Shown: positions 3,113 to 31,827 of the stretch, in pieces
How the letters are laid out: the number at the start of each line of letters is the position of its first letter
Position numbering within the stretch: the stretch's first letter is position 1
Assembly (NCBI GenBank): GCA_003150515.1
Contig: QALW01000010.1
Span: forward strand, 15,894 to 79,893
Origin: Selenomonadales bacterium
GTDB taxonomy: Bacteria > Bacillota > Clostridia > Christensenellales > QALW01
Reading direction: 5' to 3'
Length of the DNA stretch: 64,000 nucleotides
Made by a program: the position numbers and the translations under genes
Notes under the pieces: generated by a model
What the model was told of the DNA's origin: nothing
Databases searched by the model: none
The model's input: only the letters and a program-made list of their open reading frames with translations

Positions 3113-4297
3113 TTATTCCGCAGGGTATAATTTATTAAATACTAAATCGAATTTTTCCAGCGCAAAATCCAATTGCTCTTTAGTATGAGTGGCGGTATAA
3201 CTGGTGCGCAGTATGCTCTCGCCCTCAGGCACGGCCGGAGAAATTACCGGATTTACATATACCCCGTTTTCCAAAAGCGCGCGGGTTATAATGAATGTGC
3301 GTTCGTTTGTGCCTGTGCGGACGGGCACTATGGGAGTTATGCCTTCTCCGCAGGGAATGCCCAGCTTTTTGAAGCCCTCCCGCATGTAATCTCCGTTTTT
3401 GCGCAGCTTCTCGCACCGTTCGGGCTCGCTTTTAAGAATTTCCAGAGATTGGAGCGCGGCCGCCGCGTTGGAGGGAGGAATGGAGGCGCTGAATATGTAG
3501 GGGCGGGAAACGTGCATAGCGTAATCAACCACCCGCTCCTCCGAGGCCATAAAGCCGCCCAGGGAAGCGAAGGATTTGCTGAAGGTGCCCATTATTATGT
3601 CCACTTCCTTTTCCAGCCCGAAATATTCGGCCGTGCCTCGCCCGTGAGCGCCCAATACGCCTATGCCGTGCGAATCGTCCACCATCACCCGAGCGTTATA
3701 GCGCTTGGCCAGGCTGACTATTTCGGGCAGATCGGCCAGATCGCCCTCCATGGAAAACACTCCGTCCACCACTATCAGCTTACCTCTTTCAGCCGGGGCA
3801 TCCTTCAGCTTCTGGGATAAATCGGTCATGTCGTTATGCTCGTATTTAACCAGCTTTGAAAAGCTCAGCCTGGACGCGTCCATTAAAGAGGCGTGATTGG
3901 CTCTGTCAAAAAAGATTATATCGTGCCGTCCGCAAAGCGCGGAAATTATGCCCAGGTTGGTCTGGAATCCGGTGGACCACGTCATGGCGGCCTGCTTGCC
4001 TAAAAATTCAGCCAGCTCGCTTTCCAGTTTTTTATGCAGGGTAAGAGTGCCGTTGAGAAATCGGGAGCCGGAGCATCCCGCGCCTAATTCCTTAAGCGCG
4101 CGGCAGGCTGCGTCTATTACTCTTTCGTCGCTGGTCAGTCCCAGATAGTTGTTGCTGCCCAGCATTATAGTGCGCCGGCCGTCCATAATAACCTCCGAAT
4201 GCTGCTTGGAGGAAATCTCGTGAAAATAGGGATAAATCCCCGCTGCCCGCGCTTGGTCCGCCGGGCTGGGCTCATAGCATTTTTGAAATAGATCCAT
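3113..4297 (-). CDS. PLP-dependent alpha-oxoamine synthase family protein (KBL/BioF/SPT-like; specific substrate not assignable)
   Basis: 394 aa. GSNNYLGL motif, PLP-lysine context GTFSKSFASLGG, DDSHG. No bio or tdh neighbours. Confidence 0.8.
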   Translation of the reverse strand: MDLFQKCYEPSPADQARAAGIYPYFHEISSKQHSEVIMDGRRTIMLGSNNYLGLTSDERVIDAACRALKELGAGCSGSRFLNGTLTLHKKLESELAEFLGKQAAMTWSTGFQTNLGIISALCGRHDIIFFDRANHASLMDASRLSFSKLVKYEHNDMTDLSQKLKDAPAERGKLIVVDGVFSMEGDLADLPEIVSLAKRYNARVMVDDSHGIGVLGAHGRGTAEYFGLEKEVDIIMGTFSKSFASLGGFMASEERVVDYAMHVSRPYIFSASIPPSNAAAALQSLEILKSEPERCEKLRKNGDYMREGFKKLGIPCGEGITPIVPVRTGTNERTFIITRALLENGVYVNPVISPAVPEGESILRTSYTATHTKEQLDFALEKFDLVFNKLYPAE

Positions 4298-4778
4298 TGT
4301 TAATACGCTCCTAATTTAAAAAATAAATATAAAGACAAGATATTATACCATCCGAAAGGCTTAATTGCAAATGGTTATATAATATTTATATATAAGTCGT
4401 CCGGGCTTGTATGCCTCTATAAAGAGGGCTGCATACAGTTTGGGAAAAGGGAGAAGAATAAATACAGCCGCGCGTTTTTAATATGCATGCTTAAACGCTG
4501 CCGGCGTATAGACGGTTAAAACGCTGCCGGCGCCTGCGGCCGGGAATATGCTCTGTTTATAAAGCGAATGCCGGCTTTTTAATCCGCGCATGATAATGTT
4601 TTTTAAAAAGAATGAAAAACGGCGATTATTCGAGATAATAAAGATTATTTCGGATATTTAGAGGCTAAAGCATTGAAACGGCCGCATTCAGCCTTAAATC
4701 AATGTTTATTCATTGCTGTTAAAGTGTTATTCTTAAGAATAAATTTGATTTGCTCCGAACATGAAAGGAGGGCGGCTT

Positions 4779-5510
4779 ATGGAAATAGATGTTTTTCCCA
4801 AGGACGTAGATATTACGCTTTTCGGCCATACCTTCTGGATCAGGGAGACATACCTTACATCCCTTATATTAATAGCTCTTATACTCGTAATCGCCTTGAT
4901 TATCAGATTTGTTTTAATCAGGCGCTTTACAACCGACGTGCGCAAAATAGGCAAGGCGCAGCTTTTATGCGAATACCTCTTTAATATGCTGGAGCGTTTT
5001 ACCAAGGGCGCCGTGGGCAGCATGGGGCCAAAGCTGTCCCCATATATTCTTGCTCTCGCTTTTTATATCCTTCTAAGCGGGGTTATAGAGCTTTTCGGCC
5101 TGCGCACGCCTCTTTCCGACCTCTCGGTGACCGTTTCCTTCGGGCTTTCCACCTTTCTGATTATTAATTATTACGGCCTGAGAGAAAAGGGCGTTATCGG
5201 ACGCATTAAATCCTACGGCAAGCCTAAGCCCATTATAGCGCCTTTTAAGCTCATCAGCGACCTTGCGACTCCCGTAAGCCTGTCCTGCCGTATGTTCGGC
5301 AATATCCTGGGCGGATATATTATAATGGAACTGCTCTATGAGGTCTTGCTGAGCGCTGTGGAAAAATGGCTGGTGGCTATTCCCTTTGCATTTGTAATTC
5401 CGGCGGCGCTGTCTTTGTATTTTACTCTTTTCCACGTTGCTATTCAGTTTTATATTTTTTCCATGCTCAGCCTTACGTTTGTAAGCGAAGCGGTGGAAAA
5501 GGAAGCCTGA
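4779..5510 (+). CDS. atpB: F0F1 ATP synthase subunit a
   Basis: Polytopic membrane protein heading the atp operon. Conserved LSCRMFGNILGG (essential Arg). Start set at the ATG after AGGAGGG. Confidence 0.9.
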   Translation: MEIDVFPKDVDITLFGHTFWIRETYLTSLILIALILVIALIIRFVLIRRFTTDVRKIGKAQLLCEYLFNMLERFTKGAVGSMGPKLSPYILALAFYILLSGVIELFGLRTPLSDLSVTVSFGLSTFLIINYYGLREKGVIGRIKSYGKPKPIIAPFKLISDLATPVSLSCRMFGNILGGYIIMELLYEVLLSAVEKWLVAIPFAFVIPAALSLYFTLFHVAIQFYIFSMLSLTFVSEAVEKEA

Positions 5511-5572
5511 AATTCCGGCGGAGTTTAAGGCCTATATATTTTTAGCTATACTATACTCAGGAGGATTTTATT

Positions 5573-5791
5573 ATGGATTTATCAGTAATAGGCGCGGCCA
5601 TAGCCGTGTTTACCGGTGTGGGAGCGGGCATAGGAATGGGTTTTGCAACGGGCAAGGCCTGCGAAGCGGTGGCGCGTCAGCCTGAGGCCTCGGGCAAAAT
5701 TCAGGGCGTGCTTCTTTTGGGCCTGGCGCTGACTGAATCAGTCGCCATATACGGCCTGCTTATAGCGCTGCTGCTGATTTTCGTCAAATAG
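5573..5791 (+). CDS. atpE: F0F1 ATP synthase subunit c
   Basis: 72-aa two-helix proteolipid with a GxGxGxG-type helix 1 and the carboxylate in [10 protein letters not shown]. Confidence 0.9.
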
Positions 5792-5820
5792 TAAAAGCCG
5801 CGGAAAGGGTTTAAAAATAA

Positions 5821-6315
5821 ATGGATGGATTATTTGGAAGCTGGTTATATATAGTCCTGCATATAGTTAATCTTGCCGTTTTGGTATTCCTGCTCAGGCT
5901 TATTATATATAAGCCCATGAAAAAATTCATGGCCAAGCGCCAAGAGGAACTGGAGCATGAAGTGGCTTCCCTGGATGAGGCGGCCGCCAAATCGGAGGGC
6001 GCCCGCGCGCTTTTGGAGCAGAAGGAAAAGGAACTGGAGCAAAAGCAGCGCAGGGATTATTACGAGGCCATGCAAAAGGCCAGCGCCAGCGCTGATGAAT
6101 TAATAAAGGCCGCTCAGAAAGACGCCGACGCTATAATTGATCAGGCTGAGCGCCGCGCGGATGAAATTAAGCAGGGCGCCAACGAGGAGATACGCGAGGC
6201 GGCCGCGGTTATGGCCGTGGATATAGCCGCCGCAGTTTTGCCCGGCAAGCTTTCAAAAAGCGAGCATGAGGAGCTGCTGGAGGCCAGCGTTGCGGAGGCG
6301 AAGAAATATGGATAA
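5821..6315 (+). CDS. atpF: F0F1 ATP synthase subunit b
   Basis: N-terminal TM helix followed by a long charged coiled coil. Operon position between c and alpha. Confidence 0.85.
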
Positions 6316-10913: not shown

Positions 10914-11178
10914 CTGCGCCCAGCCTTTAGGCTGGGCGCAAAGTCTCAGGGTTTTACGGAAAGCAAAGCTTTCCGTAAAACCCTGAGACTTTGCGTTTTT
11001 TGGCGCCGAAGGCGCCAAAAAACGCAGCCGTTTATTTTACTGGATAAAGGCTTATATGGTTTGGGCCCTGCCTCAGCTTTGCTGAGGCAGGGCCCAAGTG
11101 TCTCCATGTTTAATGGAAAGCTTTGCTTTCCATTAAACATGGAGACACTTGGGGTTGGCTCCCAAAGGGAGCCAACCC
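10914..11178. repeat. NP3: array of six perfect hairpins (two three-hairpin modules)
   Basis: Hairpins at 10914-10939, 10940-10991, 10992-11024, 11061-11095, 11096-11148 and 11150-11178. Stems 11-25 bp; loops ttta/aaa/gaa/ttt/ttt/aaa. Confidence 0.9.
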
Positions 11179-11293
11179 CAAATATTTCATTATTCAATAG
11201 TTGAAATAATAAAAAGGCGGAAATTGTTAAATCAATCTATATTTTTATTTAAGGAGTAATCAAACGAAGATGAAAGAAAATAGTGTATCAAAT

Positions 11294-12001
11294 TTACTTT
11301 GAGCCCTTGCTTCCGTTACATTTACTACATAGAACACGCAAATTTGAAGGAATACTTTTTCCACCTTTGGAGATTGGAATAATATGATCTATATGTAATC
11401 CAACTTCATCTGGCATATATTTTTTGCAAATCTGGCATGTATAGTGATCTCGTTCCATAATTTTTTTTCGCAAGGAAGGAGTCATGAGTTTTCGTTGACT
11501 TTTACTGTTATAATTTCTTAATGTTGTTTCAAAACCGATTTTTTCAAGCTGCTTATGACGATTATCCATCCATTGCCAATTTACTGCCCATTCAGAGACG
11601 ATAACAGATACTTTGTACGCCGTTTTTATATAATTTCTTTGTTGATAACGAGTTTGTTTTCTAATAACCTTAAAATGGAATGCTAGTTTATCATCTAGAA
11701 TGTTTTGGTATTGTTGCGCGCGATATTTCTTTAATCTACAAGCTTGAATATAGTTTTCGGTTTCTTTTTTCCACTCATCAATCTTTTGTTGATGAGTTTG
11801 TATCATTTTCCAGTTCTGTTCGTCTCGAAGAAAATTATCAATATAATCTTCTATTTTAACACTTCGTTTGCCCGTTATATCAAATGAATGAGTAAAATAT
11901 GGGTAATGAAATGGATTTCGTAAAATTCGGCATGTGAGATATATCAATATACACAATACTGAAAAAATAACTACTATTAATAACCATGCGTTTTCAAACA
12001 C
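11294..12001 (-). CDS. membrane-anchored HNH endonuclease domain protein
   Basis: N-terminal TM helix (AWLLIVVIFSVLCILIYL). C-terminal HNH motif CQICKK...HIDHIIPISKGG...NLRVLCSKCNGSKG. GTG start 6 nt after AAGGAGG. Confidence 0.75.
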   Translation of the reverse strand: MFENAWLLIVVIFSVLCILIYLTCRILRNPFHYPYFTHSFDITGKRSVKIEDYIDNFLRDEQNWKMIQTHQQKIDEWKKETENYIQACRLKKYRAQQYQNILDDKLAFHFKVIRKQTRYQQRNYIKTAYKVSVIVSEWAVNWQWMDNRHKQLEKIGFETTLRNYNSKSQRKLMTPSLRKKIMERDHYTCQICKKYMPDEVGLHIDHIIPISKGGKSIPSNLRVLCSKCNGSKGSK

Positions 12002-12182
12002 AGGATACCTCCTTCGTTAAGCTAGGGTTTATTAAATAAAATTGTATAATGCGGAGTAAAACGTAATAGTGTATTTACTACTGCGATACAATATAATTAT
12101 TTGTTTTCATTCGCAAATACATATATTATCTGGTAAACATGTTATAGGGCATCTGTGTTTATCGTATTAGTTGAAGGATATT

Positions 12183-12222
12183 ATTAAAAACCACACTTTG
12201 ACCAATAGACAAAAGTGTGGTT
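12183..12222 (-). terminator. rho-independent terminator downstream of tRNA-Met
   Basis: 11-bp stem aaccacacttt/aaagtgtggtt followed by a T-run on the minus strand. Confidence 0.7.
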
Positions 12223-12227
12223 CTTAA

Positions 12228-12304
12228 TGGTAGCGGCGAGTGGATTCGAACCACCGACCTGTCGGGTATGAACCGAATGCTCTGGCCATCTGAGCTACAC
12301 CGCC
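12228..12304 (-). tRNA. tRNA with CAU anticodon (elongator Met or lysidine-Ile2; not distinguishable by eye)
   Basis: 77 nt. Hand-folded cloverleaf: acceptor GGCGGUG/CGCCGCU, UAGCUCAG D-arm, anticodon loop UUCAUAC, GGUUCGAAUCC T-arm, encoded CCA. Confidence 0.85.
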
Positions 12305-12399
12305 ACATATCAGTATTACGGATTATAGCTTAAACCTGGGCAGTTGTCAAGCATTTATTAATCATATATAATGTCCATTGGATTTAGTTTTGACGGACT

Positions 12400-12518
12400 G
12401 CTTGGTGCCGCCGGCTGCAGCCGGCGGCGCCAAATGACACCCCCTTATCCGGAAAGCAAAGCTTTCCGGATAAGGGGGTGTCATTTGGCTCTGGCGCATT
12501 AATGCGCCAGAGCCAAGC
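12400..12518. repeat. NP4: three-hairpin module with a weak 6-bp closing stem
   Basis: Hairpins at 12402-12433 (one G-T pair), 12432-12486 (26-bp stem, apex ggaaagc aaa gctttcc) and 12487-12514. gcttgg/ccaagc closes the module. Confidence 0.85.
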
Positions 12519-12526
12519 TTTAGCAT

Positions 12527-12718
12527 TTAATCCATTTCATCTTCAATAATATCGTTCAAATGGATAGGATCAATACCGCCGTAGAAATTGCATTTGTCAA
12601 TAATTCTTTGTACTTTGTCAGAATCATGGGATAATAGTTTATACACGTCACCGCACCTTATTCCATACATGGCTCCAACACCTTCTACAGGGACTTCGAA
12701 AATTTCGCATTCGTACAT
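12527..12718 (-). CDS. small conserved hypothetical protein, paralogue A (63 aa)
   Basis: MYECEIFE...YGIRCG...KCNFYGGIDPIHLNDIIEDE. AGGAGG lies 7 nt before the ATG. One of four paralogues in the window. Confidence 0.8.
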   Translation of the reverse strand: MYECEIFEVPVEGVGAMYGIRCGDVYKLLSHDSDKVQRIIDKCNFYGGIDPIHLNDIIEDEMD

Positions 12719-12760
12719 AATGAACCTCCTTATTAATTGGTTAAATATTTCTTTTTCTAC

Positions 12761-12803
12761 AATATATCATAAACCGAAAAAATTATCAAGTATTTTTTGG
12801 AAA
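12761..12803 (-). promoter_or_regulatory. sigma-A-type promoter of paralogue A plus upstream TTTCCAAAA box
   Basis: In gene sense: TTGATA, 17 nt, TGaTATATTGTA. A CCAAA box lies 7 nt upstream of the -35. Confidence 0.65.
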
Positions 12804-12959
12804 TTAAGTATAATAATTTTTAATAGCATATTTTATTTCATTAAAAATACAAAATTAGACATGTAAGAATAAATTACTTGCATAACATAATATATAGAGC
12901 GCATAATAGGCTATTATTTATTAAATGTTTGATTACAATTTTTAACTATTTGTAAAATT

Positions 12960-13005
12960 TATAAAATAAGATACAAGGCAGGAGAAAAATATTCTGCCTG
13001 CCTTG
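12960..13005 (-). terminator. terminator of paralogue B
   Basis: 9-bp stem caaggcagg/cctgccttg followed by T-rich sequence on the minus strand. Confidence 0.6.
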
Positions 13006-13057
13006 CTTCTATATTGCGCTGTTTTGTTATGTACCTTTGCTGTGAACTGATCAGAAA

Positions 13058-13255
13058 TTAACCTTGCCATAATTCATCTTCAATAATGTCACCCAGATGA
13101 ATTGGATCTATGCCGCCATATTCGTTGCATTTATCAGAAATTCTTTTGACATTGTCCAGATTATCTGATACCAGCGCTTTAACTCTGCCACATTTAATAC
13201 CATACATGGTCCCTTTTCCTGGAACAGTTGTCTCAAATATTTCGCATTTATACAC
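13058..13255 (-). CDS. small conserved hypothetical protein, paralogue B (65 aa)
   Basis: Start moved to the GTG 8 nt after AAGGAGG, giving MYKCEIFE... in register with paralogues A and D. YGIKCG, KCNEYGGIDPIHLGDIIEDE. Confidence 0.8.
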   Translation of the reverse strand: MYKCEIFETTVPGKGTMYGIKCGRVKALVSDNLDNVKRISDKCNEYGGIDPIHLGDIIEDELWQG

Positions 13256-13298
13256 CCTGTCCACCTCCTTCTTACTAATAAATCACCTACTTTTTTAC

Positions 13299-13342
13299 AA
13301 TATACCATATTTATCAGTATTAGGCAAGCGGTTTTTGGTAAT
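13299..13342 (-). promoter_or_regulatory. promoter of paralogue B plus TTACCAAAA box
   Basis: In gene sense: TTGCCT, 17 nt, TGgTATATTGTA. Box lies 8 nt upstream of the -35. Confidence 0.65.
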
Positions 13343-13414
13343 TTTTATAATTATTTATAAATATTTAATGTGTATTATTTCAAATAGTTACTTATTGATA
13401 AAAAATATGTAATA

Positions 13415-13516
13415 TGCTCTGGCTCTTGTAGGCCAGAGCATAGTCTCAATGTTAAACTGAAAGCATAGCTTTCAGTTTAACATTGAGACTTAGCGCCCAG
13501 CCAAAGGCTGGGCGCT
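13415..13516. repeat. NP5: three-hairpin module
   Basis: Hairpins at 13415-13440 (tgctctggc/gccagagca), 13442-13490 (23-bp stem, apex gaaagc ata gctttc) and 13492-13516 (agcgcccagcc aaa ggctgggcgct). Confidence 0.9.
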
Positions 13517-13531
13517 GCCTTAAAAATGTTT

Positions 13532-13723
13532 TTATTTAATTTGGGCGTCATCGATAATATCTCTCAGGTGTATCGGATCTATACCATATTTGTTGCATTT
13601 GTTTGTTAGTTTCTGAACTTTGACAAAGTTGCGGGAGATAAGCTGATGAGTTTCACCGCATTTAATTCCATAGACAATTTCTCCGTTTTGGTTTTTCTCT
13701 TCATAGACTTCGCATTTAAACAT
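13532..13723 (-). CDS. small conserved hypothetical protein, paralogue C (63 aa)
   Basis: Start moved to the ATG giving MFKCEVYEE..., by homology. YGIKCG, KCNKYGIDPIHLRDIIDD. Confidence 0.75.
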   Translation of the reverse strand: MFKCEVYEEKNQNGEIVYGIKCGETHQLISRNFVKVQKLTNKCNKYGIDPIHLRDIIDDAQIK

Positions 13724-13762: not shown

Positions 13763-13803
13763 AATATATCACATTTAAGAACAGAATGCAATTATTTTGG
13801 TAA
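13763..13803 (-). promoter_or_regulatory. promoter of paralogue C plus TTACCAAAA box
   Basis: In gene sense: TTGCAT, 17 nt, TGaTATATTATA. Box lies 5 nt upstream of the -35. Confidence 0.65.
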
Positions 13804-13937: not shown

Positions 13938-14072
13938 ACTGGGGGGCGGCGCGAGCCCGGCCTGCGGCCGGGCTCAGCGGAGCACAGATATGGGAAAGCG
14001 CAGCTTTCCCATATCTGTGCTCCGCCAGCGCATGGCGCCTTAATGGCGCCATGCGCTGCGCCGCCCCCCAGT
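13938..14072. repeat. NP6: 14-15-bp outer stem enclosing three hairpins (four-way junction)
   Basis: Outer arms actggggggcggcg/cgccgccccccagt. Inner hairpins at 13953-13975, 13977-14025 (apex gggaaagc gca gctttccc) and 14026-14058. Confidence 0.9.
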
Positions 14073-14128
14073 ATTGCTTACTTTATCTTTTCTTAAATCG
14101 GCCGTTATAATTTAGTGCGTACATATTA

Positions 14129-14923
14129 TTAAGGATGGTCGTTGATTTGATTTTTTTCCAGCCAGCGTCTGGGAGAAAGCCCCGTGCGCTTTTTGAATAC
14201 TCTGGAAAAATAATAATAATCATGAAATCCCGCCTGCCGGGAAATTTCTTTTATGGTTATGCTTGTTTCCCTGCTTGTGCGCAGTAATTGCAGGGCGAAG
14301 GCTACGCGTTTTTTTGTTAAAAACTGTACTGGCGTGTCTCCAGTGGATTTTTTAAAGAGCCTGCGAAAATAATCGTTGTTCAGCGCAAAGCGTCCGGCCA
14401 TGTGTTCAGTGTTAAAGTCGGGATTGGATATATTCGCTATAATTTCTTTTACGGCCGAGGATACATACGGATTATATGCGGTTTCATTCATAAATGAAAT
14501 GATATATTGGTTTAATGCGTCAAATAAACAATTCACAATATTTTCCCAGTTTTTTCGCTTTAGGTGGTATTCCCAATACATTTGACGCAATATATTCAGA
14601 AAATCTTCACCGTCGCTGTCATGCAGCAGAAGATGCGAGCTTCCCGCTATGGGAAATTCGTGAAATGTGTAGTGATAGTTTTTAAAGCCTGTGTCTGAAT
14701 AATCAGTATGCGGAGTTTCAGGCGCTATTAAAAAAATATCTCCCTTTTTAAAGGGATATCTGCGTCCGTCTATTTCCACAATGCCCGAGCCGTCGGTATA
14801 ATATACCCCTTCCCATAATTCGTGCGTATGTACCTTAACGCGGTATGTGCTGTTAAAAAGCCGCCCTACATATTTAGGCCCGGCGCTTCGGGCATAGCGC
14901 TCCGTATGCTTGTTCTGTTCCAT
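14129..14923 (-). CDS. AraC family transcriptional regulator (cupin sensor plus HTH)
   Basis: 264 aa. C-terminal AraC-type double HTH (ISRQAGFHDYYYFSRVFKKRTGLSPRRW). Divergent from the sugar operon. Confidence 0.85.
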   Translation of the reverse strand: MEQNKHTERYARSAGPKYVGRLFNSTYRVKVHTHELWEGVYYTDGSGIVEIDGRRYPFKKGDIFLIAPETPHTDYSDTGFKNYHYTFHEFPIAGSSHLLLHDSDGEDFLNILRQMYWEYHLKRKNWENIVNCLFDALNQYIISFMNETAYNPYVSSAVKEIIANISNPDFNTEHMAGRFALNNDYFRRLFKKSTGDTPVQFLTKKRVAFALQLLRTSRETSITIKEISRQAGFHDYYYFSRVFKKRTGLSPRRWLEKNQINDHP

Positions 14924-15482
14924 TTTTAGGCCTCCGTTTTTTAATTAGTTTTTATTCAGCGAGCCGTCTGCGTTTAAAACGGGTCGCGCTTATGCAAGCA
15001 CGCAAAACGGGCAGGGCGCGCGCAAAGCCGGCCAATCAGGACAAAACGCCGGATAAGAGGTTTAGGCCGCAGCTTTTAAGAAGCATGAATAGCGTGATAA
15101 TTTTAATATATGTTTAGCTGCTGCGCGGGCCGCGGCTGAATCAGTCGAAAAATCAGCTCCACGCCCCTTTTATTTTAATATAATATGTCTGTTTTGTCCA
15201 TCTTATTATCTGTTTTGTATATATACTCTTGCCCGTTGGGGGACTATACTAAAAATAAGATTGGACAATTCAATCAGAGTACAATGCGCTTTTGCGGGAG
15301 CGCGCGTCGCGTCCGCTTTGCCGCGCAGCTTTAAGACGCCGGATTTTTGCCTGGACGGCAATTAAACAGAAAAGGAAAGCTGCTCCCTTTAATGCGCGTT
15401 GCGCTATATTTGCATTGTCCGGATAATATATATGGGCTCTGTGTTTTTAGCTCTCTTTGAGGGGCCAGGGAAGGAGACTGCC

Positions 15483-16685
15483 ATGAATAAAAAACAGGAT
15501 TTAATTAAAGAACATTTGGAGAAGAGCGGAGGTATATTGAATTTAATCCCGGTATTTGTTCCGCGCCGGTTCGGATCGGCCGGACATCGGCTTAAGTTGC
15601 ATCCGGACGATTATTACGCTTTGGGCACAAAGCGCGGCTCCATTAAGGAGCGCTGGTTTTCTTCGGTTATCTGCCCTATGAACGGGACGGACGCGGCTGA
15701 GGACGAGGGCCTGAGCTATGTTAATTTAACGGGCAGGCTGGAGGATAAAATTTCTCTCAGGGATTTTGTTAATACTCTTAAAGGCGAGCTGATTGGGAGC
15801 GCGCTGTATGACAAATACGGAAACTGGCCCATGTATTCCAAATTTTTCGACTATGAGGGCCCTTTATTCCATCATCTGCATCTGAGCTTTGAAGCGGCCG
15901 CCAGAGTGGGCAAGCTGGGCAAGCCTGAAGCCTATTATTTTCCTCCTCAGTATAATAATTATATGGGCAAATTCCCTCATACTTATTTTGGATTTGATCC
16001 GGACGTTACCAGAGAGGAAGTGAAAGAACGCCTGAAGGGATATACCGACAGAGACACCCGTATTACCGAATTATCCCGGGCGTATAGGGTTGAGCTGGGC
16101 ACGGGCTGGTATACTCCGCCGGGAGTGGTGCATGCTCCGGGTTCAGTTTTGACCTATGAGCCTCAGTGGAATTCAGACGTCAATTCGGTATATGAGAATA
16201 TCTGCGACAACGAAATATATGATTACAGCTTTTTGGCCGAAAACTGCCCTGAAGATAAATGGCATGATCTGGACTATATTTTAGATTTGCTGGATTGGGA
16301 GAAAAACGTCGATCCCCATTACCGCAAGAGCTATTTCCGCCCGCCCATAACCATTGCGGAAAACGAGCAGTATACTGAAAAATGGATAGCTTACGGCAAT
16401 GATTATATCGCGGCCAAGGAATTAACCGTGCAGCCGGGAGCAAGGGTTATGATTCAGGACAATACTCCATATGGCTGTATAATCGTACAGGGCTATGGCA
16501 AAATAGGCGCTCATAACTGCGCCTGCGCTACTATGCTGCGTTTCGGCCAGCTCAGCCAGGATGAATTTTTTGTTTCCTATGACGCGGCGAAACAGGGCGT
16601 AAGCATAGAAAACCACAGCAGCTGCGAGCCGCTGGTTATGCTTAAGCATTTTCCTAGCAATTCTTTAGTGCCCAGGGCTGAATAA
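15483..16685 (+). CDS. cupin-fold protein, putative sugar isomerase (unassigned)
   Basis: 400 aa from the ATG after GGAAGGAG. First gene of the operon with 3-epimerase, kinase and 4-epimerase. The function is inferred only from context. Confidence 0.45.
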   Translation: MNKKQDLIKEHLEKSGGILNLIPVFVPRRFGSAGHRLKLHPDDYYALGTKRGSIKERWFSSVICPMNGTDAAEDEGLSYVNLTGRLEDKISLRDFVNTLKGELIGSALYDKYGNWPMYSKFFDYEGPLFHHLHLSFEAAARVGKLGKPEAYYFPPQYNNYMGKFPHTYFGFDPDVTREEVKERLKGYTDRDTRITELSRAYRVELGTGWYTPPGVVHAPGSVLTYEPQWNSDVNSVYENICDNEIYDYSFLAENCPEDKWHDLDYILDLLDWEKNVDPHYRKSYFRPPITIAENEQYTEKWIAYGNDYIAAKELTVQPGARVMIQDNTPYGCIIVQGYGKIGAHNCACATMLRFGQLSQDEFFVSYDAAKQGVSIENHSSCEPLVMLKHFPSNSLVPRAE

Positions 16686-16850
16686 AATTTGGGCGCCTGT
16701 CCCCAAAAGGATATTATTCTGAAATCGGGCGGGGGCGGAAGAATGAAACTCCCGGCCGGGCGGAAAGGCGCATGCCTCTAGGCCTGCCGGACGGCTTTGG
16801 GCCCAATTAAAAAAGATATTCATATTTATATATGTGTTAAGGAGGCCAAT

Positions 16851-17672
16851 ATGAAGCGCAGACTTGGCTTATATGAAAAATCCATGCCGGACGGTCTTAG
16901 CTGGAGGGAAAAGCTTGCAGCCGGCCGGGAAGCGGGCTTTGACTGGCTGGAGATGAGCGTGGACGAATCAGACGCGCGTTTGTCCAGGCTGGAATGGAGC
17001 CCGCGTGAACGCCGGGAACTGGTAAATTTATGCCGTGAGACGGATTTTTATATTGACACTATCTGCCTGAGCGGACATAGAAAATATCCCATAGGCAGCG
17101 CCAGGGCTCAAATTGAGGCACGGGGCATGCGCATAATGGAACAGGCTATAGAATTAGCTTACGATTTGGGTGCGCGCATTATTCAGCTTGCCGGCTACGA
17201 CGTTTATTACGACGAGGATTCCACTCCCTGTACTAAAGAGCGCTTTATGCAGAATTTATGGGAAAGCACGCGCATGGCGGCTTCCAGGGGAGTGATTCTG
17301 GCCCTGGAAACCATGGAAAACGATTTTATGAATACAATCGGCAAGGCTATGTATTATGTCAATACGATTAATTCGCCCTATCTAAAAATATATCCCGATA
17401 TGGGGAATATAACCAATGCCACAGGACATATAGCTCAGGATATACGCGCGGGCAGAGGGCATATAGCGGCGGCGCATTTAAAGGAAACTAGGCCGGGCGT
17501 CTTCCGCAATCTGCATTTCGGAGAGGGAGATGTGGATTTTAAATTGGTTACAGACGTGCTCAAGGCTCAGGATGTAGCCATGTTTACGGCGGAATTCTGG
17601 TATGACGGAAATGAAAATTGGAAAGAGACGCTTAGAAACAGTCATGATTTTCTAAGGCCGTATCTTGAATGA
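16851..17672 (+). CDS. L-ribulose-5-phosphate 3-epimerase (UlaE/SgbU family, xylose-isomerase-like TIM barrel)
   Basis: N-terminus LGLYEKSMP..LSWREKL..AGFDWLEMSVDE is typical of the family. ATG after AAGGAGG. Confidence 0.8.
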   Translation: MKRRLGLYEKSMPDGLSWREKLAAGREAGFDWLEMSVDESDARLSRLEWSPRERRELVNLCRETDFYIDTICLSGHRKYPIGSARAQIEARGMRIMEQAIELAYDLGARIIQLAGYDVYYDEDSTPCTKERFMQNLWESTRMAASRGVILALETMENDFMNTIGKAMYYVNTINSPYLKIYPDMGNITNATGHIAQDIRAGRGHIAAAHLKETRPGVFRNLHFGEGDVDFKLVTDVLKAQDVAMFTAEFWYDGNENWKETLRNSHDFLRPYLE

Positions 17673-17695
17673 CGAGGAGCAGGAGAATATAATTT

Positions 17696-19192
17696 ATGGC
17701 TGAATATTTTTTGGGCGTGGATAACGGAGGAACGGTTACCAAGGCCGCGATTTTTGATCAGAACGGCCGGGAAATAGCCTCGACTTCTCAAAGCACTCCT
17801 GTGCTTACTCCTAAAAAGGGATATTTTGAGCGGGATATGCTCAATCTCTGGCAGATTACCGCCGGCGCTATACGCCGGGCCATAGCCCAATCGGGCGTGC
17901 AGAGCGGGGAAATAGCGGGCGTAGGATGCACTGGGCATGGCAAAGGCTTATATCTCTGGGGCAAAAATAATTCTCCCGCTTATAACGCTATTGCTTCGAC
18001 CGACCACCGCGCCGCAGAAATCACAGAGCGCTGGCATAAGGACGGAACGGCTTTGCGCGCCCGCGAAAAAACCCTTCAGAACGTTATAGAATGCCAGCCC
18101 GCCCCCTTGCTCGCCTGGCTCAAAGAAAATGAGCCCGAGGCTTATGCAAATATAAAATGGATTTTCGAGGCTAAGGATTACATTCGTTTTATGCTCACGG
18201 GGGAGGCTTACGCCGAGGAAACCGATTATTCGGGCACCAGCCTTATGAATCTGCTCACGCGCGATTTTGACGAGGAGCTTTTAAGGCTTTGGGGGCTGGA
18301 GGAAATTAAGGACTGCCTGCCTCCGTTAAGGCATTCCTTTGAAAACTGCGGCCGTATTACCGCCAAGGCCGCCCGGGCAAGCGGCCTGATTGAGGGGACG
18401 CCCGTATGCGGCGGGATGTTTGATATAGACGCATGCGCAATAGCTATGGATGTGAGCAGTCCTCAAAAGCTGTGCGCGATAACGGGCACCTGGAGCATAA
18501 ACGAATATATTTCTTCCGTTCCCGTACCTGCCGATTCCAGCACGCTGAATTCGCTGTTCTGCATTCCGGGCTATTATTTAATAGAGGAGAGCAGCCCGAC
18601 TTCAGCGGGAAATCTGGAATGGGTGATTGATAATTTTTTTAAGAGGGAAAAGGAAAGGGCTGCGGCTGAGGGGCGTTCTGTGTATGAATATATAAACGCA
18701 GCCGTGGCCGGAGCGCCCGTGACTGAAATTATATTCCTGCCTTTTTTATACGGGACCAATTATCCGGGCAGCGGCGGCGCGCAGTTTGCGGGCATAACGG
18801 GGGAGAGCACGGCGGCGGATATACTTCGGGCGGTTTACGAGGGCGTGGCTTTTTCTCATCTGAGCCATATTGAAAAGCTGCTTTTAAGGAGAGAAAAGCC
18901 TGAAGCCGTGCGCATAGCGGGCGGAGTGGTTAATTCGGATATATGGCTTCAAATATTCGCGGACGTAATCAATATTCCTCTGGAGGTAGTCCAAACCAAA
19001 GAATTGGGCGCGCTGGGATGCGCCATGGCGGCGGCGGTATGCGCGGGAAAATATAAAGATTACGCGCACGCGGCCGGGCATATGGTCAAGGTTAAAAAAG
19101 TTATTAAGCCCAATGAGGGCATGCATCATATATATATGAAAAAATACAGGCGTTATAAGGCGCTGGCAGAATTGAGCTGCCGGATTAATTAA
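17696..19192 (+). CDS. FGGY-family carbohydrate kinase (L-xylulokinase-like)
   Basis: 498 aa. N-terminus YFLGVDNGGTVTKAA, and FGGY C-terminal domain motifs. Confidence 0.8.
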   Translation: MAEYFLGVDNGGTVTKAAIFDQNGREIASTSQSTPVLTPKKGYFERDMLNLWQITAGAIRRAIAQSGVQSGEIAGVGCTGHGKGLYLWGKNNSPAYNAIASTDHRAAEITERWHKDGTALRAREKTLQNVIECQPAPLLAWLKENEPEAYANIKWIFEAKDYIRFMLTGEAYAEETDYSGTSLMNLLTRDFDEELLRLWGLEEIKDCLPPLRHSFENCGRITAKAARASGLIEGTPVCGGMFDIDACAIAMDVSSPQKLCAITGTWSINEYISSVPVPADSSTLNSLFCIPGYYLIEESSPTSAGNLEWVIDNFFKREKERAAAEGRSVYEYINAAVAGAPVTEIIFLPFLYGTNYPGSGGAQFAGITGESTAADILRAVYEGVAFSHLSHIEKLLLRREKPEAVRIAGGVVNSDIWLQIFADVINIPLEVVQTKELGALGCAMAAAVCAGKYKDYAHAAGHMVKVKKVIKPNEGMHHIYMKKYRRYKALAELSCRIN

Positions 19193-19210
19193 CGCGGAAA
19201 GGAATAAGGA

Positions 19211-19903
19211 ATGCTTGAACAGCTTAAACAGAAAGTATATGAAGCGAATATGCTGCTGCCCCGATATGGCCTGGTCACGTTTACCTGGGGCAATGTTTCG
19301 GCCATAGAGCCGGAAGAGGGACTGGTGGTTATTAAGCCGTCGGGAGTGGAATATGAGAAAATGTCTCCGGAGGATATGGTAGTAATGAGCCTGGACGGCG
19401 CTCAGATTGAAGGCAGGCTGCGTCCCTCTTCGGATACTCCCACCCATCTGGAATTATACAGAAATTTCAGAGGTATAGGAGGGGTGGTGCATACCCATTC
19501 CCAATGGGCTACGATATGGGCTCAGGCAGGCCTGGATATTCCGGCATACGGCACTACGCACGGAGATTATTTTTACGGAGCGGTGCCCTGCACGCGGGAG
19601 ATGACGCCCGAAGAAATAGCCGGGGAATATGAGATCAATACGGGCAGGGTTATAGTGGAGACGTTTAATAAGGGAAATGATTGGGCGTCTATGCCCGGAG
19701 TGCTTGTGAGCAGCCACGGCCCTTTTACATGGGGCGGGGATTGCTTTGAAGCCGTTGAGAAAGCAGTGGTGCTGGAGCAGATTGCCATGATGGCTTATTA
19801 TACGCGGAGCCTGGGCAAATCCGAGCCTATGCGTCAGGAATTGCTGGATAAGCATTTTTTGCGCAAGCACGGTAAGAACGCCTATTACGGACAGCGGAAA
19901 TAA
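19211..19903 (+). CDS. L-ribulose-5-phosphate 4-epimerase (AraD/SgbE/UlaF family class II aldolase)
   Basis: 230 aa. [26 protein letters not shown] motifs. Confidence 0.9.
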
Positions 19904-19917
19904 TTCGGCCTTTTAAT

Positions 19918-20102
19918 GGGGCCGGGAAATAAAATTCCAGCCAAGGGGGGCGGCGCGGAGCCCTTCGGGCCGAGCGGAGCCGCCGCGGCGGGCAAGGCAA
20001 GCCTTGCCCGCTCCGCGCCGGCTCCGCTTTATTTCGGCGCGCCCGAAGGGGCGCCGAAATTCCGCGCCGCCCCCCTTGGCTGGAATTTTATTTCCCGGCC
20101 CC
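19918..20102. repeat. NP7: 42-bp perfect outer stem enclosing three inner hairpins (185 bp)
   Basis: Arms 19918-19959 and 20061-20102 are exact reverse complements. Inner structures include gcgggcaaggc aa gccttgcccgc. Lies between convergent genes. Confidence 0.9.
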
Positions 20103-20135
20103 GCTTATATAATTGCGCCTTAAAAAAAGCCGGGC

Positions 20136-24434: not shown

Positions 24435-24464
24435 CCATTTTAATATTTAAGGAGCTGATTGAAG

Positions 24465-25589
24465 ATGAAACAGTTTTTTTGCTATGAGGAGCCGGATAAC
24501 GCGCAGAAAAAGTGTGATTTGGAAATTTTAGCCCGTCCGTTTTGGATGGGAAATATAATGTATAATGAATCGGTATGCTTTATAAATGTAGGCGGGCATA
24601 TACGAGGCAGGCTGCTGTTTAAGCCTGAACGGATAATAAGCCTCAAAAGCAATGATTTAAAGCAGGAATTTATTATGGGAGAAGATTGGCGCTGGGACGA
24701 GCTCACTCAGACTCTGGAGCTTTTGCCCGGCTCGCGCATTCCTTATTTCGAGCCGGCCGATTTAAGGGGAGAAGGCTTAACGCCCGTACCCGGCGCGCCT
24801 AATGGATTTGACCAATTAAAGCGCGCGCAAATAGGGCAGTGTCTTTATTGCGAGGGCCCTTTTTTCTGGGAAAAGGCGTTATATATCACTTATTCCTATG
24901 AGCCGCGGGAATGGAAGGAATATAATGAGAGCTATAAGCCTTCTTTGCTGCCTAAAACGCTTAAGCGGCTCACGGAGAAAGAGAAAATAAAATTTGTGGT
25001 TTACGGGGACAGTTCGCATACCGGAGCGGATACCAGCAGCTGGTATAACCGCGAGCCGTTCATGCCGTCTTATCCTGAATTAGTCAGGCAGGAGCTGCAA
25101 AGGCTTTACGGCGCCGATATAACTTTGGTTAATAATGCGGTAGGAGGTACTGCGAGCACTTGGGGAGTAGAGAATTTTAAGCAAAAAGTGCTGGATGAAA
25201 AGCCGGATCTCCTGCTTTTAGGCTTTGGCAATAACGACTGCGGAGCGGGTTTCAGCATAAAGGATATTATTGAGCGTCTGAAATATATGATAGATACCGT
25301 GCGCGAGAAATGCCCGGGCTGCGAAGTTATATTGATGGGGCCTATATTGGCCAATCATTTTTCTGGACATGTTACCTATACTCCCGATTTGGTTGCGCCC
25401 CAGAAAAATCTTGAGAGGGAGGGAGTTGCATACTGCGATATTTTTAAATGTTTAAGTTATATAGCGGCCTGCAAGGATCATGCGGCGATATGCGGCAATG
25501 GCGTAACCCATCCCAATGATTGGACTACAAGAGTATATTCGGCCAACACTTTGGCGCTGTTGGTGGATTACGACAGAAACGGCTATTGA
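24465..25589 (+). CDS. SGNH/GDSL-type hydrolase family protein
   Basis: VVYGDSSHTG (block I Ser), GFGNNDC (block III), THPND (block V). Confidence 0.7.
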   Translation: MKQFFCYEEPDNAQKKCDLEILARPFWMGNIMYNESVCFINVGGHIRGRLLFKPERIISLKSNDLKQEFIMGEDWRWDELTQTLELLPGSRIPYFEPADLRGEGLTPVPGAPNGFDQLKRAQIGQCLYCEGPFFWEKALYITYSYEPREWKEYNESYKPSLLPKTLKRLTEKEKIKFVVYGDSSHTGADTSSWYNREPFMPSYPELVRQELQRLYGADITLVNNAVGGTASTWGVENFKQKVLDEKPDLLLLGFGNNDCGAGFSIKDIIERLKYMIDTVREKCPGCEVILMGPILANHFSGHVTYTPDLVAPQKNLEREGVAYCDIFKCLSYIAACKDHAAICGNGVTHPNDWTTRVYSANTLALLVDYDRNGY

Positions 25590-25604: not shown

Positions 25605-25865
25605 TGAGCGCTTGGCGGCGCATGCCCCAGCGAAGCTGGGGCATGCGCCGGGGCGCGGCGTCCGGCAAGCAAATGCTTGCCAAGGCCGAGCTTGCGCTCG
25701 GCCTTCGCGGCCCTGCGGGCCGCGGGACGCCGCGCCCCCCGGCACCTCGTGCCGGTTTGGCGTTTGCGGCCCGCAGGGCCGCCGTCCGGGGCTTTTAGCC
25801 CCGGACGGGCAGGCGCTCAGCGCCTGCCAAACGCCGAATCGGGCATGAGGCGCCAAGCGCCCTCA
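25605..25865. repeat. NP8: seamless series of hairpin, four-way junction, hairpin, four-way junction, closed by a long-range stem
   Basis: 25617-25649 hairpin; 25650-25738 outer stem plus three hairpins; 25739-25755 hairpin; 25756-25838 outer stem plus three hairpins. gcgcttggcg (25608) pairs with cgccaagcgc (25851). Confidence 0.9.
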
Positions 25866-25976: not shown

Positions 25977-27344
25977 ATGAAAGCAAATAATTTTCAAAGC
26001 AGGCAGAAAAAAGCGTATCTTGTGTTTTTCTCATGCGCTGCCGCGCTCATTATAATTTTTGTGATAATATGTGCCAGTGCCTTTGGCAGAGGCGCGCCGG
26101 AAGCTGGAAAGACCTCCGTTTCCGGGGGGACGGCAACTCAGAACGGTTATATAACTTTCCCGCCTTCTCCGACTGCAACTTCCCATGCCCAGACGCAAGA
26201 AGCGCCCTCTGCTTCGGCAGAGCCGTCCCTATCTCCAACCATTACTACTCCCAGCGAGCCTATATATCCGGAGCAAAGCGCGCTGCTGCAATTTACCGGA
26301 GACGTTGTGCTGCATTCGGCTGTGCTTTCTGCCGCCGGGCAGTCGGGATATATCTTTGATGAATATTTTGACGGTATAAAAAAATATCTCACGGGGGATA
26401 TGGTGTTTGCTAATCTGGAGGGGGTTATAGAAGGCGGCGGAGATTATTCGGGTTATCCGCTGTTTAACTATCCCAAAAGCATAGCGGCCGCGCTGAAAAA
26501 TGCCGGCATTACCAATGTCATTACTGCTAACGACCGTGCGTTTGATAAGCTTGCCAGCGGCCTTGTTTCTACAAAACAGGCTTTGGCTGAGGCGGGATTG
26601 GACGCTATTGGAACATATGCAACCGCTCAGGAAGCTGAGCAGCCCTATATAAAAGAAGTCAACGGTATAAAGATAGGCGTTATAGCTTATTCAGACGGAA
26701 CTAACAATATGGACGTGCATATGCCTGAAGAATATTTGGCGTTTGCCATGAAGATGATAGATTGGAACGACGTTGATAAGACCGCCCAGAATATTAAGGA
26801 AGATATTGCCCAGTATAGAGCGGCAGGAGCTGAATTAATTGTGCTTTCCCTGCATTGGGGAACGGAATATACTTACACGCAGAGCAGCGAGCAGAGGCAG
26901 CTTGCTCAATTAGCGCTTGAATCGGGCGCAGACATCATAATGGGAACCCGTCCTCATATGGTGCAGCCTGTTACGGTTAAAAACGTGCAGGTGGAAGGAC
27001 GGGATAAAAAAGTGGCGGTTATGTATTCGCTGGGTAATTTTTTTGCTGACCAATACGACCTTAATCAGGATAGAACGCAAGCGGGTGCAATCGTTAACAT
27101 TAAGGTTTCGCGCAATGTATATACCAACCAAATAGAATTGGAAAGCGTTGAATATATTCCCACCTATATATATAAATATACATCGGATGAAAACAGTATT
27201 TCTTATGATGTTATAGCGCCTGATGAATATTCTGAGCCTCCGGAGTTTTTTGCCAGTCAGGAGGATTGGCAGAAATGCGTTAATGCCGCGAAGCTTGTAG
27301 AGCAGACCATAGGAAGCGCAGCTTCTAAAGCGGAATTTGGATAA
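25977..27344 (+). CDS. CapA family protein (PGA_cap metallophosphatase-like), membrane-anchored
   Basis: N-terminal TM helix, Ser/Thr/Pro-rich linker, then a CapA-type domain (FTGDV..., NLEG, LSLHWGTEY). Confidence 0.75.
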   Translation: MKANNFQSRQKKAYLVFFSCAAALIIIFVIICASAFGRGAPEAGKTSVSGGTATQNGYITFPPSPTATSHAQTQEAPSASAEPSLSPTITTPSEPIYPEQSALLQFTGDVVLHSAVLSAAGQSGYIFDEYFDGIKKYLTGDMVFANLEGVIEGGGDYSGYPLFNYPKSIAAALKNAGITNVITANDRAFDKLASGLVSTKQALAEAGLDAIGTYATAQEAEQPYIKEVNGIKIGVIAYSDGTNNMDVHMPEEYLAFAMKMIDWNDVDKTAQNIKEDIAQYRAAGAELIVLSLHWGTEYTYTQSSEQRQLAQLALESGADIIMGTRPHMVQPVTVKNVQVEGRDKKVAVMYSLGNFFADQYDLNQDRTQAGAIVNIKVSRNVYTNQIELESVEYIPTYIYKYTSDENSISYDVIAPDEYSEPPEFFASQEDWQKCVNAAKLVEQTIGSAASKAEFG

Positions 27345-27355: not shown

Positions 27356-27517
27356 AAAAGCCAATAAGCATTTATGTTTATGGCGCACGGCCCCGCTAAG
27401 CGGGGCCGTGCGCCGGGGCGCGATGCGCGGCAAGCGAAAGCTTGCCGCTGTTCGAGCCTGCGGCTCGGAACCGGCGGCTTGGCCGCCGGCATCGCGCCTA
27501 GGTGCTTATTGGCTTTT
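27356..27517. repeat. NP9: 15-bp outermost stem enclosing a 15-bp hairpin and a 10-bp stem that closes three hairpins
   Basis: aaaagccaataagca (27356-27370) pairs with tgcttattggctttt (27503-27517). Hairpin at 27382-27414; junction at 27417-27498. Fills the whole convergent intergenic gap. Confidence 0.9.
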
Positions 27518-27710
27518 AATCCTCCAGGAGCTCATCCTCTATGATTTCGCTCAGATGTACGGGATCTATTCCGTATTGATTGCATTTCTGAATGATTTTC
27601 TTTACTTTTTCCAGGCTGAATGAAACCAGCCTGCATTCCTCGCCGCATTTTATGCCGTACATAGTTCCGGCATTAGCAATGGATACTTCATACAGCTCGC
27701 ATTTGTACAT
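27516..27710 (-). CDS. small conserved hypothetical protein, paralogue D (64 aa)
   Basis: MYKCELYEV...YGIKCG...KCNQYGIDPVHLSEIIEDE. GGGAGGA RBS. Confidence 0.8.
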   Translation of the reverse strand: MYKCELYEVSIANAGTMYGIKCGEECRLVSFSLEKVKKIIQKCNQYGIDPVHLSEIIEDELLED

Positions 27711-27818
27711 TATTTATATTCCTCCCAAGCTTTACCCAAATAAAATGAGATCTTAACTTTTTGAAGCGCCCTGAAAGCGCATGTTTAGCGCAAAACTCAT
27801 TTAATTTAATGCAACTAT

Positions 27819-28043: not shown

Positions 28044-28099
28044 TGAGGCGTTAGTATTTTAATCTTTTATTGCCTTAGGCGCAGTCGTAATTAATGCTT

Positions 28100-31825: not shown

Positions 31826-31827
31826 AA

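Follow-up and report, generated by a model that had tools for sequence, protein, structure and literature searches.

A stretch of 64,000 nucleotides (nt) from a Selenomonadales bacterium (assembly GCA_003150515.1, contig QALW01000010.1, positions 15,894 to 79,893), referred to here as the window, carries four small paralogous genes, named A to D, all on the minus strand. Genes A (12527-12718), B (13058-13255, with a GTG start) and C (13532-13723) form a tandem array and code for 63, 65 and 63 amino acids (aa), respectively, and gene D (27516-27710, 64 aa) is situated apart from them. The isoelectric points (pI) of the proteins are 4.3 for A, 4.9 for B, 7.7 for C and 4.7 for D. An initial annotation of this DNA had described four paralogous open reading frames (ORFs) of 63-65 aa, three in tandem and one apart, and their coordinates and strand are confirmed. 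It could not place the proteins in a family and suggested a duplicating or mobile cassette bracketed by palindromes. Here the genes are assigned to the Pfam family DUF6514, their loci are traced in related species, and a recurrent linkage of DUF6514 to XRE-type regulators in other lineages is described.

Genes A to D and the DUF6514 family

The start of gene B was set at 13255. The mechanical ORF list begins the gene at a GTG at 13264, and a second GTG, 8 nt past an AGGAGG sequence, is found at 13255. The orthologue in a related species (locus L003, see below) has an ATG at the matching position, and the gene calls on eight contigs of the window species are also of 65 aa. In aa sequence A is 67% identical to B, 56% to D and 48% to C, and A and B show 56-59% identity to D. 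An alignment of the four has 25 invariant columns, among them M1, C4, E5, E8, Y18-G19-I20, C22-G23, K42-C43-N44, IDP, HL, II and D, and the shared motifs listed in the initial annotation all fall within these columns. Conservation spans the whole length of the proteins. A six-frame profile scan of the 64-kb window revealed no fifth copy. The AT-rich setting that had been noted is also evident: the array region has ~34% G+C versus ~50% for the window, with 35-42% in the coding sequences and 20-31% in the promoter spacers.

Contrary to the initial annotation, the proteins do have a family. C and D match the Pfam family DUF6514 (PF20124) with 31.7 and 30.4 bits, above the curated gathering score of 23.9, and A (19.9 bits) and B (16.3 bits) fall under it. 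With a profile built from 43 family members all four score 68-81 bits (A 75, B 69). Judged by these scores and by their identity to D, A and B are homologous to the family though sub-threshold for the curated model. The match of A-D is confined to positions ~29-92 of the 94 of the DUF6514 profile, and the exact D protein is present in public gene calls with a PF20124 label, flagged as weak. Residues G19, N44 and D59 do not vary among the 43 diverse members, which include A-D, and conservation reaches at least 90% at Y2, Y18, I20 and H52. The core residues of the family are all present in A-D: the Y-G-I of strand 2, the N that closes helix 1, the H with which helix 2 opens and the D within that helix.

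A six-sequence profile was used in an exhaustive HMMER search of 1.84 billion representatives (E <= 0.001). Of 97 matches, eight are spurious, being giant repeat proteins with per-domain scores of <6 bits that were summed over repeats. The remainder are proteins of ~50-140 aa and one of 235 aa (P0027) that has three tandem DUF6514 domains, an arrangement that fits a self-associating or scaffolding module. Features found throughout the family are the Y-G-I that ends strand 2, the (C)N that ends helix 1, the (D/S)-P-(I/V)-H-L that opens helix 2 and an acidic D-(V/I)-(V/I)-E-D-F tail. A second search with the 43-member alignment gave 235 proteins, nearly all with a precomputed PF20124 label. The window sub-family, with an M(Y/F)xCE N-terminus and G(G)IDP, is narrow and confined to a few close relatives; only about ten clusters at 50% identity score below 1e-10.

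Other collections did not add an annotation. NCBIfam has no family for A-D, the best PHROG match (E 0.018) is to families of unknown function, and PADLOC gives no consistent family across the 43 members. No toxin or antitoxin family was matched in Pfam, NCBIfam or PADLOC. A search of a literature library found no paper that mentions DUF6514 or PF20124 and no published function, so that the absence of a known role, as initially noted, holds. A-D are new, divergent members of a catalogued family without an assigned function.

Upstream of each gene is one common arrangement: TT(A/T)CCAAA, 4-6 nt, TTGnnn, a 17-nt spacer ending in TGn, and TATATT. On the minus strand these putative promoters are at 12761-12789 for A (TTGATA, preceded by TTTCCAAAA), 13299-13327 for B (TTGCCT, preceded by TTACCAAAA), 13763-13791 for C (TTGCAT, also preceded by TTACCAAAA) and 27819-27847 for D (TTGTAA, preceded by TTACCAAA). 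The geometry is kept in all paralogues and orthologues and a Shine-Dalgarno sequence is found before each gene, in line with the individual promoters and ribosome binding sites assigned initially. Sporulation-specific promoters were considered and rejected, as the motifs are sigma-A-like with an extended -10. By its motifs, each of A-D is a putative transcription unit of its own (monocistronic), preceded by an extended -10 promoter of sigma-A type and a Shine-Dalgarno sequence and followed by a structured element at the 3′ end. The leader of D, with ~105 nt (27711-27818) versus ~35 nt for A-C, is longer. It has a stem (27738-27749 paired with 27796-27807) that encloses two small GC hairpins and has no Rfam match; in the D orthologues a leader stem is at the same place but with a different sequence.

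Structure modeling of D with AlphaFold2 and the 43-sequence alignment gave a mean predicted local distance difference test (pLDDT) of 87.6 and a predicted template modeling score of 0.66. In the model the elements are arranged beta(4-11)-beta(15-22)-beta(25-30)-alpha(33-46)-alpha(50-63), and a shallower alignment gave the same topology. A-D are predicted to fold into a compact domain of three strands and two helices. Foldseek searches of the PDB with two models found nothing below E 0.1 (best 0.12-0.3); the top matches, among them ThcOx, which contains an RRE (recognition element of ribosomally made peptides) and has a TM-score of 0.33, are not credible. In the viral structure collection BFVD the sole good match is a family member from a gut myovirus (A0A8S5LW99, 34% identity, TM-score 0.69). 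A profile search of PDB sequences was also without result, the best match (E 0.29) being an SMC coiled coil, i.e., noise. The proteins are mostly acidic, with a median pI of 4.6 for the family.

The three conserved Cys residues on which the initial annotation had remarked are indeed invariant among A-D (C4, C22 and C43), as is H52. However, they are not invariant in close orthologues or in the wider family. C4 is specific to the sub-family, and the close orthologue P0012 has F in its place; C22 is S in another close orthologue, P0004, and C22 and C43 are often hydrophobic across the family. Replacement by hydrophobic residues suggests positions in the protein core rather than metal ligands. 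A metal site formed by the three Cys is not supported by the conservation.

Short, Cys-containing, multi-copy ORFs with strong promoters would also be expected of precursors of ribosomally made natural products (RiPPs) or bacteriocins. This explanation was rejected as very unlikely, and we give it next to no weight. The proteins have a confidently folded domain, by the pLDDT above, and are conserved over their full length; no leader or cleavage motif is present, no modification enzyme or exporter is nearby, and the domain occurs fused to helix-turn-helix (HTH) domains, as described below.

Loci of relatives were sought in one genome per species with a search seeded by the alignment of close relatives. 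Four loci were found, in two genomes only. UMGS1037, an uncultured Clostridiales metagenome-assembled genome, has a D-like gene (locus L001) and a C′-B′-A′ tandem (L003) in which the order and the intervening hairpins are as in the window; its A orthologue is at 6530-6721 of L003. Candidatus Neochristensenella gallicola has D′ (L002) and C′ and B′ followed by tRNA-Met (L004), also as in the window. The flanks of these orthologous loci are syntenic with the window by blastn, and every window paralogue is closest to its positional counterpart in the relatives.

Substitutions between these pairs were counted by the Nei-Gojobori method. The ratio of non-synonymous to synonymous rates (dN/dS) is 0.04-0.22 overall: 0.04 for A and for C (both with L003), 0.07 for B (with L004) and 0.11-0.22 for D (with L001 and L002). 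The proportion of synonymous differences (pS) is 0.44-0.79, at or near saturation; for gene B compared with L003, the proportions of non-synonymous and synonymous differences are 0.045 and 0.785. The pairing of orthologues together with near-saturated synonymous sites indicates that A-D diverged before these species split and have been held by purifying selection. A recent duplication was rejected on the saturated synonymous sites and on the array being invariant among strains. Among eight contigs of the window species (L111-L118), obtained from different human-gut metagenomes, the three-gene array does not differ in copy number or spacing, and each gene has one or two polymorphic sites.

The exact A protein is present in 649 blocks and the exact D protein in 814 blocks of a public assembly collection, those with D being human-gut metagenomes, which marks the host as a common gut organism. 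The A-D loci are fixed sites of the core chromosome in a Clostridia species that is prevalent in the human gut and related to Ca. Neochristensenella. That the four genes belong to DUF6514 and are fixed, old paralogues is in our view virtually certain.

Linkage of DUF6514 to XRE-type regulators

The gene neighborhoods of ten diverse DUF6514 members were inspected. An XRE-type HTH gene is directly upstream and co-oriented in two independent contexts, and in one of these (L007) the end of the XRE gene (4648-5004) and the beginning of the DUF6514 gene (5001-5219) share 4 nt. Overlapping pairs are also found at L099 (3736-3972 with 3950-4168) and L056 (817-1059 with 1028-1255). Three orthologous contexts have a divergent repressor gene with HTH_3 and Peptidase_S24 domains, and one has a convergent HTH gene. 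A motif-seeded scan then supplied 80 metagenome and 10 IMG/VR loci, in which ORFs were called and searched with profiles, and the DUF6514 domains were grouped into 35 clusters at 70% identity.

Two of the 35 clusters (36 loci) consist of fusion proteins of ~208-216 aa, in which ~60-70 linker residues separate an XRE HTH at the N-terminus from a DUF6514 domain at the C-terminus. Together with the 138-aa protein P0054 from the exhaustive search, three fusion architectures (212, 208 and 138 aa) are found in which HTH_3 and the C-terminal DUF6514 are both above Pfam cut-offs. In 12 further clusters a short XRE gene (76-135 aa) is immediately upstream on the same strand and often overlaps the DUF6514 gene, and many of these short genes share the signature S-x-R-W-Y-Q-Q-I-E-K-G. 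One cluster is divergent from an XRE gene, which codes for a repressor with HTH_3 and Peptidase_S24, one is convergent, and one has an XRE gene within 3 kb. Twelve of ~28 informative clusters have no HTH neighbor; the flanks of the remaining clusters were too short to judge.

Elsewhere in these loci XRE ORFs have a density of 0.033/kb, from which ~2% would be expected per upstream slot, and 12 of 28 were observed (P about 2e-13). Among 148 larger neighboring ORFs no family occurs more than five times; HTH_3 is the most frequent and no enzyme family is present more than three times. Families with two or three members include ABC transporter ATPases, serine recombinases, Peptidase_M78, Peptidase_S24, spoIII genes, sigma factors and LytTR regulators. 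The recurrent linkage of XRE and DUF6514, whether fused, split or free, is new to this analysis. One gut contig (L097) carries two nearly identical XRE-DUF6514 fusion genes (3202-3828 and 5366-5992), 1.5 kb apart.

Domains that are found both fused to a partner and adjacent to or overlapping with it usually act in one complex, which makes DUF6514 a candidate partner domain of XRE proteins. It is tentatively proposed, as a possibility that falls somewhat short of even, that DUF6514 is a small and mostly acidic module which binds proteins and modulates regulators of the XRE type. The domain would bind XRE-family HTH regulators. In other lineages it is present as the C-terminal half of the regulator itself, or as the putatively co-translated product of a gene that overlaps an XRE gene of ~80 aa. 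Stand-alone copies such as A-D may bind a cognate regulator, or one that bears DUF6514, and by titrating or complementing it may alter its activity. They could act as anti-repressor, co-repressor or co-regulator, or sensor. A DUF6514 gene opposite a divergent CI/LexA-like HTH_3 and S24 repressor is in the position of a switch partner. For A-D specifically the proposed role is an extrapolation from other lineages, the window copies being orphans.

The fused, split and stand-alone forms of DUF6514 relative to an HTH_3 regulator recall the SinI/SinR pair of Bacillus subtilis. SinR is an XRE-family repressor and SinI its anti-repressor, a small protein that matches the non-DNA-binding domain of the regulator, so that the heteromer alters the repressor. 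However, DUF6514 has a predicted beta3-alpha2 fold instead of a helical hook, and no XRE gene adjoins the window copies. Homology to SinI/SinR was also rejected: there is no hit to the Pfam SinI family (E <= 1), and hhalign gives a probability of 0.5% for SinI and 0.2% for SinR.

Several observations weigh against a regulator-binding role. No XRE gene adjoins A-D, and the only XRE-type ORF in the 64 kb, at 44043-44561, is generic, 16 kb away and without DUF6514. The 12 clusters without an HTH neighbor include all four of the window type. It should be noted that the metagenome scan was seeded by one motif, LDP[IV]H[LI]xD[VI], and that the sample is skewed to one part of the family. The promoters of A-D are pattern matches, and strong means a match to consensus only. 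No solved structure resembles the fold, so there is no mechanism to borrow, and with a pI of 7.7 protein C is not acidic.

The same absence of neighbors, together with orphan window copies and constitutive-looking promoters, would suit an abundant small cytoplasmic protein unrelated to transcription factors, with a function in stress, redox or metal handling through its Cys and His residues; the link to XRE genes would then reflect control of the gene rather than a partnership of its product. C4, C22, C43 and H52, invariant among A-D, could be cited in its favor, but C4 is a sub-family trait and C22 and C43, hydrophobic in many members, look like core residues rather than ligands. Regulation alone would hardly account for the fusion to HTH_3 in three architectures. 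We regard a non-regulatory protein of this kind as rather unlikely, although it should be kept in mind.

The order of genes in the 12 clusters with an upstream XRE gene raises another explanation. A short XRE gene that overlaps a downstream gene of 65-80 aa resembles type II toxin-antitoxin operons with XRE-type antitoxins, such as HipB-HipA or those of the HigA type. DUF6514 would then be the toxin and XRE the antitoxin, or the reverse, and the window copies orphaned or domesticated remnants. One XRE partner is weakly similar to the Xre-like antitoxin HTH (PF20432, E 9e-4, below the cut-off), and some loci have markers of mobile elements, namely serine recombinases, Peptidase_M78 and IMG/VR contigs. 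However, DUF6514 proteins are acidic and very small (60-75 aa), show no similarity to toxins and match no PADLOC or Pfam toxin family; fusion to an HTH domain is atypical of type II toxins. Four partner-less copies under consensus promoters and purifying selection, fixed across species and strains, are unlike a toxin as well. No partner gene is present beside A-D that would make a type II module in the window. A toxin-antitoxin pair is considered improbable.

Phage carriage of the domain raises the possibility of anti-defence functions. DUF6514 is found on the ten IMG/VR contigs and in the phage protein of BFVD (A0A8S5LW99), and D adjoins a strain- or species-specific putative type III restriction-modification island. 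Small, acidic, HTH-associated proteins could be anti-CRISPR-like and under the control of regulators like the anti-CRISPR-associated (Aca) HTH proteins, first acquired from phage and then retained. An N-terminal HTH fused to a small domain also recalls AcrIIA1, in which an HTH is fused to an inhibitor domain. Yet aca genes are usually downstream in anti-CRISPR operons and the HTH gene is usually upstream of DUF6514. PHROGs gave no significant match, the window genes are syntenic genes of the core chromosome that do not vary among strains, and loci that lack the restriction island still have D orthologues. An anti-defence role seems quite improbable.

Should DUF6514 prove to be a regulator-binding module, it would be a new class of partner domain for the largest family of bacterial and phage repressors, and this would be of use in annotating the small genes of the family in gut bacteria. 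The XRE linkage is the first testable functional lead for this widespread Clostridia family. The window species, with hundreds of human-gut assemblies and four diverged orphans under consensus promoters, is a convenient case for the role of stand-alone copies.

Palindromic elements near the genes

Hairpins are found on both sides of the genes in the order given by the initial annotation, NP4, A, a hairpin, B, NP5, C, NP6 in the array and NP9, D, NP10 at the other locus, and this order is correct. NP4 (12400-12518) is a triple hairpin that begins 9 nt past the stop codon of A and lies before the tRNA-Met promoter, and NP5 (13413-13516) is a triple hairpin 16 nt past the stop of C. Between them, 3′ of B on the minus strand (12969-13010), is a simple terminator-like hairpin followed by a T-rich tract, with a counterpart at 6225-6286 of L003. 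NP6 (13945-14070), with an outer stem and three hairpins, is 3′ of an AraC-type gene (14129-14923) and 5′ of the promoter of C. NP9 (27382-27498) has three GC-rich hairpins 18 nt past the stop of D, and NP10 (27985-28043) is a single 29-bp perfect hairpin that is situated 3′ of a GDPD gene (28100-28867) and 5′ of the D promoter. Two further elements of like kind are 3′ of atpC and 3′ of an HNH gene.

The NP elements begin 8-20 nt past stop codons. Their architecture is an outer stem around three perfect hairpins, with hypervariable stem sequences and an invariant tip of the center hairpin, GGAAAGC-NNN-GCTTTCC; this 15-mer occurs five times in the window versus 0.5 expected. Rfam has no match to the elements and finds only the two tRNAs of the window, and a literature search gave nothing on palindromes in Christensenella-like genomes. 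Four perfect GC-rich hairpins are also present at 25616-25828, between a GDSL-lipase gene (24459-25589) and a PGA_cap gene (25977-27344), where no DUF6514 gene adjoins.

The association of the elements with the genes is partly upheld. Four of the seven multi-hairpin elements are within 250 nt of a DUF6514 gene, versus 11.6% of the intergenic space (P about 0.005; with NP6 assigned to the AraC-type gene, about 0.04), and hairpin flanking of the genes is conserved in three species. NP4 and NP5 have orthologues in L003 and L004, and behind the D orthologues of L001 and L002 there are multi-hairpin counterparts of NP9. In UMGS1037 the array has kept NP6 but has no adjacent AraC-type gene, and synteny breaks at window position 14069/14070. 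However, the bracketing is largely positional, as the elements are 3′ of stop codons and NP6 and NP10 are at the same time 3′ elements of the upstream AraC-type and GDPD genes; it arises because short monocistronic genes each carry a 3′ element. The initial annotation had named a lack of palindromes or AT-rich islets beside paralogues elsewhere as grounds against its reading, and for palindromes this lack is seen in the family at large: DUF6514 loci of other lineages have no triple hairpins and show ordinary single or double hairpins instead. The palindromes are a separate, genome-wide feature. From their position they are probably terminators or 3′-end stabilizers of short mRNAs, not the ends of a cassette.

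This bears on the suggestion that A-D form a duplicating or mobile cassette, with the NP elements as unit ends or recombination sites. Tandem copies, the AT-rich region, the enrichment of NP elements near the genes, the break of synteny exactly at the outer edge of NP6 and an NP number beside tRNA-Met that varies between strains would all be compatible with mobility. On the other hand, for every paralogue there is a separate orthologue in other species, where the gene order is kept and synonymous sites are saturated, and neither copy number nor spacing varies among the eight strains. The NP elements are not alike in sequence, B has a plain terminator only, and like elements are also found 3′ of the atpC, AraC-type and HNH genes. 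No transposase, integrase or recombinase is present among the genes adjoining A-D, and the wider DUF6514 family lacks such elements. A unit like a miniature inverted repeat transposable element or an integron cassette was rejected on similar grounds, i.e., stable copy number and position, flanking NP elements of different sequence and no recombinase nearby. With syntenic orthologues for each gene, the low dN/dS given above, an invariant array and no transposase, the mobile cassette is already largely refuted and we consider it scarcely tenable.

When the window is compared with L003, L004 and L111-L118, the stems of the NP elements are seen to change in a concerted manner. Between species, 10 of 41 pairs in NP4 and 10 of 45 pairs in NP5 are changed on both arms, and one-sided (G-U) or broken pairs are almost absent. 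Within the species, the pair 13456/13476 changes from T:A to A:T and the pair 12449/12469 from G:C to A:T, in complete linkage. Hairpin loops also flip, e.g., from TTT to AAA at 13503-13505. Concerted changes of the arms together with flips of the loops suggest copying from arm to arm at the DNA level rather than selection at the RNA level, and point to template switching as the likely mode of NP evolution.

Copy number of the elements varies as well. In the window and in strain contig L114 two adjacent triple hairpins are found between atpC and tRNA-Met (window 10915-11181), and L111 has one hybrid element there (3540-3690), which is consistent with deletion by recombination between two elements. 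Three of the eight strain contigs end inside NP4, an indication that assemblies break at the palindrome. As GC-rich, imperfectly repeated palindromes just past stop codons and variable in number between strains, the NP elements resemble the repetitive extragenic palindromic (REP) sequences and bacterial interspersed mosaic elements (BIMEs). They differ in having an outer stem with three perfect hairpins, hypervariable stems, an invariant center tip, concerted arm changes and loop flips.

In this lineage the DUF6514 genes and the triple-hairpin elements might instead form one functional unit, the proteins acting on, or being controlled through, their own 3′ palindromes, either as DNA cruciforms or as RNA 3′ structures. 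Such a coupling would explain why palindromes beside these genes are kept perfect by concerted arm changes in three species, and the enrichment near the genes and the arrangement conserved in three species speak for it. It is nevertheless very improbable, given that the elements also follow unrelated genes, that B is without one, that the proteins are acidic and that DUF6514 loci in other lineages lack NP elements.

Neighboring genes and variable segments

The genes beside A-D are tRNA-Met and HNH-domain, AraC-type, PGA_cap and GDPD genes, and the initial statement that no modification enzyme, transporter or toxin partner adjoins them is correct. The tRNA-Met gene (12228-12304, minus strand) is directly downstream of the array, as also in L004, and has a promoter at 12322-12350 that matches the consensus in 12 of 12 positions. 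Directly 3′ of it is an insertion of ~980 bp with 32% G+C (11250-12227) that carries the HNH gene (11294-12001). In the 235-aa product of this gene a hydrophobic segment is found at the N-terminal end and an HNH nuclease domain at the C-terminal end. Besides the window, L113 and L115 have the insertion; it is absent in L111, L112, L114 and N. gallicola.

Between D and tRNA-Leu (34935-35017) is a segment of lower G+C, 28000-34900, that is absent from the syntenic loci L001 and L002. Its genes code for the GDPD phosphodiesterase, a ResIII/DEAD helicase (29639-31825), an N6/N4 DNA methylase (31828-33549) and a Fic/DOC protein (33611-34639), and the segment has the appearance of a type III restriction-modification island beside a tRNA gene. 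Adjoining the array at NP6 is a 6-kb block (14070-20120) with the AraC-type regulator, a sugar-phosphate isomerase-like protein, an FGGY kinase and a class II aldolase. The block is present in the window and in N. gallicola and missing in UMGS1037, and its borders coincide with hairpins, NP6 (13945-14070) at one end and a hairpin at 19988-20011 at the other.

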